From NCBI RefSeq assembly GCF_048403405.1, contig NZ_CP183129.1: a DNA stretch of 64,000 bases. One strand, written 5' to 3'. The stretch is from Escherichia coli. GTDB lineage: Bacteria; Pseudomonadota; Gammaproteobacteria; Enterobacterales; Enterobacteriaceae. Every line of letters begins with the position of its first letter. Within the stretch, counting starts at the first letter, position 1. A program made the position numbers. Shown piece by piece: positions 34,701 to 37,700 of this stretch.

Positions 34701-37700
34701 TCGCTCACCTGCAACTGCGGCCATAACAATGGTTGCGGCAGATCTTGTGCTGTGCGCATAACGCCTTTGTCATAGGCCAGCGCGACATAGCGTTCCACCA
34801 TTAGCGGCCAGGCTTCTTTATCGAGCACGCGTACATCGTTGAGTAAACCGTAGCGCATCTCGCCGCGCCAGCCGGTGCGATGAGGAATACCCGCGAAGAA
34901 AGGCACTAATGCGGACTTGAAGGAGTTGGGTAAGACGTAGGCGCGGTCGTAGCGCTTTTCACGCAGACTATGACCCAGTTTGCGGCGTTCGCCGATTTCC
35001 AGCGCTCCGTGACCGAGAGGCATAGGAATAGCTTCGTTAACTTCCGGCATCCGCGATAATAATGGACGGCACCATGCCGGTGCCATCACGTCGATTATCG
35101 CCTGGGGATAGCGCGCCTGGAGCGTGCGATAGAGACTTTGCGACATCATCATGTCGCCAACCCAAGACGGGCCGATCACCAGTATTTTCATGCAGAGCTC
35201 TTATGCGTCGCGATTCAGCCAGGCCATGTATTCCGTTACACCTTCAGCAACGGTTTTGAACGGTTTATCGTAACCCGCCGCGCGCAGATTCGTCAGATCT
35301 GCCTGAGTGAACGCCTGATAGCGGCCTTTCAGTTTATCCGGGAACGGAATGTATTCGATCTGGCCTTTCTTGTGATAAGCAAGCGTTGCATCGGCTACAG
35401 CCTGGAAGGATTCCGCACGACCGGTGCCGAGGTTGAAGATGCCGGAAACGCCATTTTCCAGGAACCACAGGTTTACATCTGCCACGTCGCCCACATAGAC
35501 GAAGTCACGTTTGAAGTTCTCGCTACCTTCGAACAGCTTCGGTGATTCACCGTTATTAAGCTGGGTGTTGAGATGGAAAGCGACGCTCGCCATGCTGCCT
35601 TTATGGCCTTCACGCGGTCCATAAACGTTGAAATAGCGGAAGCCAACAATCTGCGAGTTCGCTTCTGGCAGGATTTGACGAACATATTCATCAAACAGGA
35701 ATTTTGAGTAACCGTAGACGTTCAACGGTTTTTCGTACTCGCGGGATTCAATAAAGTCGGAGGTGCGTCCGCCGTAAGTGGCTGCGGAAGAAGCGTACAG
35801 GAACGGGATTTCGCGCTCCAGACAGTAGTGCAGCAGCTCTTTGGAGTATTGATAGTTGTTATCCATCATATACTTGCCATCCCACTCGGTGGTGGAAGAG
35901 CACGCGCCTTCGTGGAAAATCGCTTCGACATCGCCGAACTCTTCGCCAGCCATAATCTGGATCAGGAAGTCTTCCTTATCCATATAGTCCGCGATATCCA
36001 GATCCACCAGGTTCACAAACTTGGTGCCGTCTTTCAGGTTGTCCACCACCAGAATATCGGTGATGCCTTTATCATTCAGGGCCTTAACGATGTTGCTGCC
36101 GATAAAGCCCGCGCCGCCGGTAACGATGATCATAACTGTAACCTTCGAATTATGGAGTCAGAGACAATCTCAGACACGAATGCTTCTATCATATCACTAC
36201 ACGGCGTTGGCTTCAGCCATTCGCCAAAAGTGAGATTGATGGACGTTATTTATCCTGAATTTTGCAGAAGTGTTAACGCGTCATCTCGTCGCGACCTATA
36301 AGTTTGGGTAATATGTGCTGGAATTTGCCCTGTCTGGAGAATCGCAATGCGTGGAGAATTTTATCAGCAGTTAACCAACGATCTGGAAACCGCACGGGCG
36401 GAAGGGTTGTTTAAAGAAGAGCGCATTATTACGTCTGCGCAGCAAGCAGATATCACTGTGGCTGATGGAAGCCACGTCATTAACTTTTGTGCCAATAACT
36501 ATCTCGGACTGGCGAATCATCCGGATCTGATTGCGGCGGCAAAGGCGGGAATGGATTCTCACGGTTTCGGCATGGCTTCGGTGCGTTTTATTTGCGGCAC
36601 TCAGGACAGCCATAAAGAGCTTGAACAAAAACTGGCGGCCTTCCTGGGGATGGAAGATGCGATTCTCTACTCTTCCTGCTTTGATGCTAACGGTGGCCTG
36701 TTTGAAACGCTGTTGGGCGCGGAAGACGCCATTATCTCCGACGCACTGAACCACGCGTCTATTATTGATGGTGTGCGTCTGTGCAAAGCTAAACGCTATC
36801 GTTATGCCAACAACGATATGCAGGAGCTGGAAGCACGTCTGAAAGAAGCGCGTGAAGCCGGTGCGCGTCATGTGCTGATTGCCACCGATGGTGTGTTCTC
36901 AATGGACGGCGTGATTGCCAACCTGAAGGGCGTTTGCGATCTGGCAGATAAATACGATGCCCTGGTGATGGTAGACGACTCCCACGCGGTCGGTTTTGTC
37001 GGTGAAAATGGTCGTGGTTCCCATGAATACTGCGATGTGATGGGCCGGGTCGATATTATCACCGGTACGCTTGGTAAAGCGCTGGGCGGGGCTTCTGGTG
37101 GTTATACCGCGGCGCGCAAAGAAGTGGTTGAGTGGCTGCGCCAGCGTTCTCGTCCGTACCTGTTCTCCAACTCGCTGGCACCGGCCATTGTTGCCGCTTC
37201 CATCAAAGTGCTGGAGATGGTTGAAGCGGGTAGCGAGCTGCGTGACCGTCTGTGGGCGAACGCGCGTCAGTTCCGTGAGCAAATGTCGGCGGCGGGCTTT
37301 ACCCTGGCGGGAGCCGATCACGCCATTATTCCGGTCATGCTTGGCGATGCGGTAGTAGCGCAGAAATTTGCTCGTGAGCTGCAAAAAGAGGGGATTTACG
37401 TCACCGGTTTCTTCTATCCGGTCGTTCCGAAAGGTCAGGCGCGTATTCGTACCCAGATGTCTGCGGCGCATACCCCTGAGCAAATTACGCGTGCAGTAGA
37501 AGCATTCACGCGTATTGGTAAACAACTGGGCGTTATCGCCTGAGGATGTGAGATGAAAGCGTTATCCAAACTGAAAGCGGAAGAGGGCATCTGGATGACC
37601 GACGTTCCTGTACCGGAACTCGGGCATAACGATCTGCTGATTAAAATCCGTAAAACAGCCATCTGCGGGACTGACGTTCACATCTATAACTGGGATGAGT

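Follow-up and report, generated by a model that had tools for sequence, protein, structure and literature searches.

The short hldD-kbl spacer of an R4-core Escherichia coli strain is probably the ancestral, unoccupied form of the htrL locus

When two genes that diverge from one another are separated by about 0.2 kb in one strain of Escherichia coli and by more than 1 kb in the K-12 reference, which of the two arrangements is the original? We address this question for the hldD-kbl intergenic region in a 64,000-nucleotide stretch of an E. coli chromosome (contig NZ_CP183129.1, assembly GCF_048403405.1), referred to below as the window. An earlier note on this DNA had stated that only 213 bp separate the divergent hldD and kbl starts, that htrL (yibB) appears to be absent, and that either this strain lacks the gene or K-12 gained it.

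The ORF starts bear out the first of these statements. A 310-aa ORF, hldD (rfaD), occupies 35201..36133 on the minus strand with its ATG at 36133, and a 398-aa ORF for kbl, encoding 2-amino-3-ketobutyrate CoA ligase, occupies 36347..37543 on the plus strand with its ATG at 36347, leaving a divergent intergenic region of 213 bp (36134..36346). Kbl is followed by tdh (341-aa ORF, 37553-38578), and the gene order on the other side is waaO-waaT-waaY-waaW-waaX-waaL, then waaC-waaF-hldD. The names rfaD, kbl and tdh are those of the annotation of strain TUM14771, and the window HldD is 100% identical to RfaD of that strain (RefSeq WP_000587750.1). An ORF listing of the hldD-kbl gap contained nothing similar to HtrL_YibB (PF09612). 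In a tblastn search with K-12 HtrL, no homologue was found in the whole 64-kb window (best E=0.11), indicating that htrL is missing from the window and has not simply moved within it. The absence of htrL claimed earlier is thus confirmed for this stretch.

Since the window covers 64 kb of the genome, htrL might have been relocated elsewhere, or the junction might be an artefact; YibB paralogues of about 60% identity do exist at other loci in Salmonella and C. freundii, although these loci are unrelated and have no bearing on the hldD-kbl slot. Both possibilities are hardly credible, because the complete genome of E. coli TUM14771 is 100% identical to the window across the junction and because short-form genomes, searched by megablast with the K-12 htrL region as query, matched through the flanks only, with 12 extra places in 5424 genomes.

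We compared the window with K-12 MG1655 (NC_000913.3), in which htrL/yibB (b3618, 858 bp) does lie between kbl (b3617) and rfaD/hldD (b3619), as the earlier note had stated. The order there is tdh, kbl, htrL (on the same strand as kbl), divergent rfaD/hldD, waaF, waaC and waaL, and the kbl-hldD gap measures 1435 bp against 213 bp in the window, which disposes of the possibility, raised in the same note, that K-12 has the same short gap. Pairwise alignment of window positions 35934-36182 and 36243-36546 with K-12 gave about 98.7% identity, and between these aligned blocks lie 60 bp in the window versus 1282 bp (36% GC) in K-12. Common to the two forms, at about 98-100% identity, are the flanking genes with their divergent orientation as well as the 49-bp hldD leader and a 104-bp kbl-proximal region. 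They differ in that K-12 possesses an htrL promoter, htrL, a terminator and a diverged 40-bp flank haplotype. In a multiple alignment, homology on the hldD side runs on beyond the pairwise block, in diverged form, as far as CTTCAGCCATTC (36211-36222), and on the kbl side it restarts at ACGTnATTTAT, from 36243, indicating that the real insertion point is a stretch of about 20 bp at 36223-36242.

The htrL-occupied form consists of a low-GC cassette of about 1.2 kb with its own promoter, htrL and a terminator. In K-12 its GC content is 29-38%, compared with 50-55% in the flanks. It carries a strong promoter-like site (TATACA-18-TATAAT with an upstream TG) and ends in an intrinsic terminator with a 14-bp stem, placed ahead of the kbl control region. 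The same htrL promoter, together with H-NS binding in the K-12 htrL<>hldD spacer, is listed in a genomic SELEX study (PMC3946193). One source labels yibB 'RfaH-regulated' (PMC8303582); inspection by eye for an RfaH ops element 5' of K-12 htrL yielded a poor resemblance only, GGCGGATGTTGG, and this candidate was dropped. Cassette-bearing intergenic regions of K-12 are 99.6% identical to those of O157, 93.8% to that of Escherichia sp. MOD1 and 72.5% to that of Citrobacter R56; given this low identity between the Citrobacter and E. coli cassettes, the cassette may be old. The window lacks all marks of the K-12 type, namely the gap of about 1.4 kb, the low-GC insert and the tgtaatcataccatcacat haplotype of the flank.

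Which state is ancestral was examined in a survey of the family. The outgroup set comprised the best 80 Kbl matches among GTDB species representatives of the Enterobacteriaceae (E. fergusonii is not included), and the hldD-kbl distance was measured in the 78 loci that hold both genes. It was 202-229 bp in 67 of these 78 other species representatives, among them E. albertii (213 bp), Salmonella enterica subsp. arizonae (202 bp) and many members of Citrobacter, Enterobacter, Klebsiella, Raoultella, Kluyvera, Kosakonia, Buttiauxella and Cedecea. An alignment of the 67 short loci with the window revealed ordered conserved blocks and a single poorly conserved stretch, located at the position of the K-12 insert. 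The 60 bp in which the window departs from K-12 proved to be family sequence, and their conservation extends to E. albertii, Salmonella, Citrobacter, Klebsiella, Enterobacter, Buttiauxella, Cedecea and others. In length (202-218 bp), block order and gene absence, the empty kbl<>rfaD regions of S. enterica, E. albertii, Citrobacter, Klebsiella and Enterobacter (the name is that used for the Salmonella region in PMC10268841) are as in the window; they differ from it only by nucleotide divergence, which is concentrated in the central spacer of about 20 bp.

The short form is thus ancestral and the cassette was gained; a deletion is unable to recreate conserved family sequence of this kind. We therefore read the window spacer as the ancestral, unoccupied hldD|kbl control region, with the cassette gained in other lineages and nothing deleted here, and we put the probability of this reading at roughly 0.8. 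Of the two possibilities named in the earlier note, the family-wide conservation of the short spacer favours the second, a gain in K-12-type strains. A simple deletion of htrL in the window strain or its recent ancestors is what one would expect when starting from K-12, the best-known reference, which has the gene. Such a deletion is nevertheless very improbable: the 60 bp at the junction show no deletion joint and match sequence conserved in E. albertii, Citrobacter, Klebsiella and Enterobacter, the 213 bp fit the family norm, and the same form is found in 3465 genomes. Within 281 bp around the gap there was no excision scar, IS end or att-like duplication, nothing beyond an 8-nt chance repeat and short palindromes, and no remnant of htrL or of the htrL flank was seen inside 36183-36242.

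The conserved blocks were then assigned to the two sides of the spacer. In order, the window has AACTGTAACCTT, TATCATATCA, CTTCAGCCATTC, ACGTnATTTATnCTG, GCGTCATCTCGT, GGGTAATATGTGC and TCTGGAGAA in the 68-sequence alignment. The hldD leader with its ribosome-binding region (36134..36182, minus strand) is identical to K-12 and O157 at 49 of 49 positions, is kept across genera and is common to htrL-minus and htrL-plus alleles. Upstream of it, a predicted hldD core promoter (36188..36216, minus strand) is composed of a -35-like CTGAAG (36216-36211), a 17-nt spacer, a TG (36196-36195) and a -10 element TATGAT (36193-36188). On the minus strand this side thus reads GGCTGAAG-N17-TGATATGAT, followed by a 48-nt leader identical in K-12. 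Alignments show TGnTATGAT and GGCTGAAG to be kept in both allele classes and across genera, and it is from this conservation that we predict GGCTGAAG-N17-TGATATGAT to be the core hldD promoter. A consensus promoter and terminator scan made no call in the gap; the predicted hldD promoter escaped it because its -35 element is weak. The hldD operon has been reported as heat-induced in a passage of PMC8745692 that cites Raina & Georgopoulos 1991.

Next to the leader lies a 40-bp flank (36183..36222) whose sequence is specific to the allele. In the alignment of both allele classes, the htrL-minus alleles of all genera carry the haplotype found in the window (..cttctatcatatcactacacggcgttggCTTCAGCCATTC), whereas the htrL-plus alleles (E. 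coli K-12, Escherichia sp. MOD1 and two Citrobacter) carry a different one, tgtaatcataccatcacat..ccCTTCAGCC. The insertion slot, empty in the window, is the non-conserved spacer at 36223..36242, the least conserved stretch of the 68-sequence alignment. Directly to the right of every insert is a block that is near-invariant across genera, ACGTTATTTATCCTG (36243..36257, plus strand), which forms the upstream edge of the kbl regulatory region. Kbl and tdh constitute an Lrp-regulated operon, and in our own comparison with the published consensus the conserved ACGTnATTTATnCTG at this edge appears to resemble an Lrp half-site. The kbl-proximal block (36303..36346, plus strand) includes a -10-like TAATAT (36309-36314) and a ribosome-binding site, GGAGAA (36336-36341); the corresponding GGGTAATATGTGC and TCTGGAGAA vary little or not at all among the 68 sequences, and the TAATAT in GGGTAATATGTGC is a putative kbl -10 element. 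A search of both strands of 36000-36500 gave no Rfam match at E<=1, and hence no known riboswitch, sRNA or leader.

We further asked what occupies the locus where it is long. A longer gap was found in 11 of the 78 loci, and a twelfth locus, from Citrobacter sp. Awk 4 (L016), ends before hldD and carries htrL (85% aa identity). Three of the long-gap loci contain htrL, with amino acid identities of 96% in Escherichia sp. MOD1-EC7003, 82% in Citrobacter sp. R56 and 79% in a genome that bears the label C. freundii M-21. Three others, from the C. youngae group, have instead a 383-aa waaB-like GT4 gene in the slot, scoring 383 bits against the NCBIfam WaaB model NF007396 (LPS 1,6-galactosyltransferase; cut-off 385). 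The remaining five, from Lelliottia, Enterobacter and Huaxiibacter relatives, possess an ERIC-like element of about 115-125 bp, in which both ERIC primers have weak matches (15-16 of 22 bases) arranged as an inverted pair. All three inserts, the htrL cassette, the waaB-like gene and the ERIC-like element, are bounded by the blocks on either side of 36223-36242. HtrL orthologues of 76-82% identity were also found in the arrangement waaC-waaF-hldD | htrL | kbl-tdh in genomes named Cedecea davisae and Atlantibacter hermannii by NCBI, while the species representatives of both (L081 and L069) have an empty slot. The presence or absence of the cassette is thus a polymorphism in at least four genera. 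A distinctive 40-bp flank haplotype unites the htrL-plus alleles of Escherichia and Citrobacter and is missing from the htrL-minus alleles of every genus, which suggests that the cassette moves by homologous recombination together with adjacent DNA, and not by site-specific insertion.

Typing of the outer core placed the window in a defined background. Published in-silico core-typing primers (PMC13293308) for R4 match the window at 30882-30901 and 31243-31261, giving an in-silico product of 380 bp (30882-31261). The window contains no site for the R1-F primer, and its waaL does not match the R1 waaL class, whereas R1 primers give an 842-bp product in E. coli B. The gene before waaL encodes a GT25 protein (waaX) in the junction-identical TUM14771 and a GT2 protein (waaV) in E. 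coli B. The window outer core is R4, not R1; the comparison with R1-core strains suggested in the earlier note is superseded by waaX and the exact 380-bp product. The window waaL is common to 691 genomes, the R4 class, of which 688 (99.6%) have an empty slot as the window does, indicating that an empty slot is the norm for its core type.

To place these alleles in E. coli as a whole, we counted them in the 5424 complete genomes that gave a match, from a collection that over-represents laboratory K-12 and outbreak O157 strains. The 3465 genomes with the 213-bp short form amount to 64% of the 5424 and the 1951 with the htrL form to 36%. The htrL-less state is thus the majority state in E. coli, and K-12 is an atypical reference for this locus. 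The genomes were typed by waaL with at least 80% of the query covered, the counts resting on a separation of 77% versus 100%, and htrL-plus genomes were counted with natural contiguous queries from waaL to htrL. All 1364 genomes with an R3 outer core were htrL-plus, compared with 451 of the 1032 with a K-12-type core and 3 of the 691 with R4, these three being porcine isolates such as ETEC1738. R1 accounts for 1832 genomes and R2 for 501, so that the five core types sum to 5420 and four genomes are untyped; the residual 133 htrL-plus genomes fall in R1, R2 or the four untyped ones, making at most 133 of 2333 for R1 plus R2. An evenly spaced typed sample of 60 genomes had htrL in 15/15 R3, 4/11 K-12-type, 2/21 R1, 1/8 R4 and 0/4 R2 genomes (R3 versus the rest, Fisher p=3e-9).

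The identity matrices of hldD and kbl did not segregate by htrL state; only the 40 bp or so beside the insert did. What htrL is linked to is the adjoining variable waa block, at a distance of about 3.3 kb, and the linkage is near-absolute for R3 and R4; the description of the locus in the earlier note as lying next to the variable outer-core cassette was therefore apt. An absolute tie of htrL to phylogroup or core type was considered and rejected, since K-12 and B differ in htrL state at 98.4% hldD identity and the K-12 core is split.

The ancestral state of the allele does not by itself prove the history of the window lineage, whose ancestor could have carried htrL and then regained an empty allele. 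Such a secondary loss would have taken place by allelic replacement through homologous recombination, probably along with the R4 waa block. In its favour, the htrL state tracks core type and not the hldD and kbl flanks, as the K-12 and B pair illustrates, and R4 is almost uniformly empty and R3 uniformly occupied across several phylogroups, which points to exchange of the region as a block. On the other hand, simple inheritance of an empty allele accounts for the data equally well, and the identity of the allele is unchanged either way. We regard a replacement of this kind as unlikely, and keep to the reading of the window spacer as an ancestral allele from which nothing was deleted.

For the window, the protein family of the absent gene is of relevance solely as cargo of the other allele. 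K-12 HtrL scores 436 bits against PF09612 (HtrL_YibB), matches NCBIfam TIGR02192/NF008462 as well, and its relatives are named 'WlaTC/HtrL family glycosyltransferase' by NCBI. Members of the HtrL_YibB family occur in LOS/LPS loci of Acinetobacter and Campylobacter (PMC4172580). A search of the HtrL sequence against solved structures returned nothing meaningful. An AlphaFold2 model built from a 35-sequence alignment (pLDDT 91.4, pTM 0.90) found its best PDB matches in GT-A-fold blood-group GTA/GTB, alpha-1,3-galactosyltransferase, xyloside xylosyltransferase and RmlA, with moderate similarity (E about 1e-5, TM about 0.45). D146 and D232-D233 are invariant in the alignment. Judging by the model, it is plausible that HtrL is a glycosyltransferase with a predicted GT-A fold.

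A broader reading, which we offer as tentative and rather doubtful, is that the spacer of about 20 bp serves as a family-wide cargo slot for LPS-core accessory genes, polymorphic across genera and exchanged with the waa block, and that HtrL would be a GT-A glycosyltransferase for an LPS modification specific to core type, which would be obligatory in R3 cores and excluded from R4 cores. In Escherichia, Citrobacter, Cedecea and Atlantibacter the cargo so defined would be htrL, and in Citrobacter youngae a waaB-like transferase.

The arrangement may be pictured as follows. The 213-bp interval would be made up of two regulatory halves placed back to back: 1) an hldD-side half (36134-36222) with the leader and a conserved extended -10 promoter-like element; and 2) a kbl-side half (36243-36346) with the conserved upstream block, the TAATAT -10-like element and the ribosome-binding site. 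The roughly 20 non-conserved base pairs that part them (36223-36242) would be the one place that tolerates foreign DNA. As the sole site at which an insert spares both control regions, this spacer could by itself explain why three unrelated inserts are found there. The conserved flanks would then have allowed the cassette to spread by homologous recombination, jointly with the adjacent outer-core block of the waa region.

The state of the window is the default state of the locus and represents an ordinary, already known accessory-gene polymorphism; an E. coli pan-genome comparison counts htrL among the waa-region genes whose presence varies (PMC8303582). K-12-templated annotation should consequently not flag the absence of htrL as a deletion. 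Presence of htrL is an almost perfect marker of R3 and its absence an almost perfect marker of R4, which could aid in-silico core typing. Immediately upstream of the predicted hldD promoter, htrL-plus strains have an AT-rich segment bound by H-NS, so the two allele classes may differ in how the heptose operon is regulated. The most noteworthy results are that the cassette is tied almost absolutely to R3 and is nearly missing from R4, an association that would suggest a core-specific role for HtrL, and that a 20-bp spacer is reused by different LPS-related cargo in several genera.

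The outer-core cluster of the window (waa genes at 24285-33134) is of the R4 type, as marked by the waaX GT25 gene (31073-31846) and an R4 waaL (31881-33134). It is not an R1 outer core. When published R4 primers were applied in silico, an exact 380-bp product was obtained at 30882-31261. The waaL of the window is common to 691 of the 5424 complete E. coli genomes in the collection. Insertion of IS1 within or beside waaL was observed repeatedly in this collection, in core types R4, R3, R2 and R1 (matches H201, H206, H262, H170 and H197). These come on top of the IS1 already known to lie in waaT of E. 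coli B (locus L085, 1513-2210).

Downstream of tdh lies waaH/yibD, a GlcUA transferase gene. It is annotated as frameshifted in O157:H7 (locus L003, 11575-12610), whereas the copy in the window (38817-39851) is an intact ORF of 344 aa. On the other side of the hldD-kbl gap, GCCCTGAATGATAAA, the reverse complement of window 36069-36083, is identical to the Rob-associated motif given for the kbl-rfaD (hldD) peak in Salmonella (PMC10268841). This match is located about 50-65 nt downstream of the hldD ATG, within the coding sequence and outside the gap.

The hldD-kbl slot holds other cargo in related genera. In the Citrobacter youngae group (L008-L010), htrL is replaced by a gene for a 383-aa GT4 glycosyltransferase (for example, L008 2696-3847). 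Its product comes very close to the model of the LPS 1,6-galactosyltransferase WaaB: the score is 383.4 bits, where 385 is the cut-off. Relatives of Lelliottia, Enterobacter and Huaxiibacter carry an insert of about 115-125 bp (L027 3753-3880; further copies in L028, L033, L038 and L046), the central inverted repeat of which resembles ERIC/IRU elements. When the insert was compared with both ERIC primers, 15-16 of 22 bases agreed. The gap reaches 2710 bp, htrL included, in a genome labelled Citrobacter freundii M-21 (L070), in which an additional 1.5 kb or so of 43% GC (2459-3990) separates htrL from kbl; no ORF of at least 80 aa was found in it on the kbl strand.

YibB paralogues of about 60% identity were also found at unrelated loci, as a lone gene near icd in Salmonella Saintpaul (L086, 4001-4858) and near dinI in C. 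freundii (L087, 4001-4858). The YibB family therefore moves as a one-gene islet, mobile to several sites.
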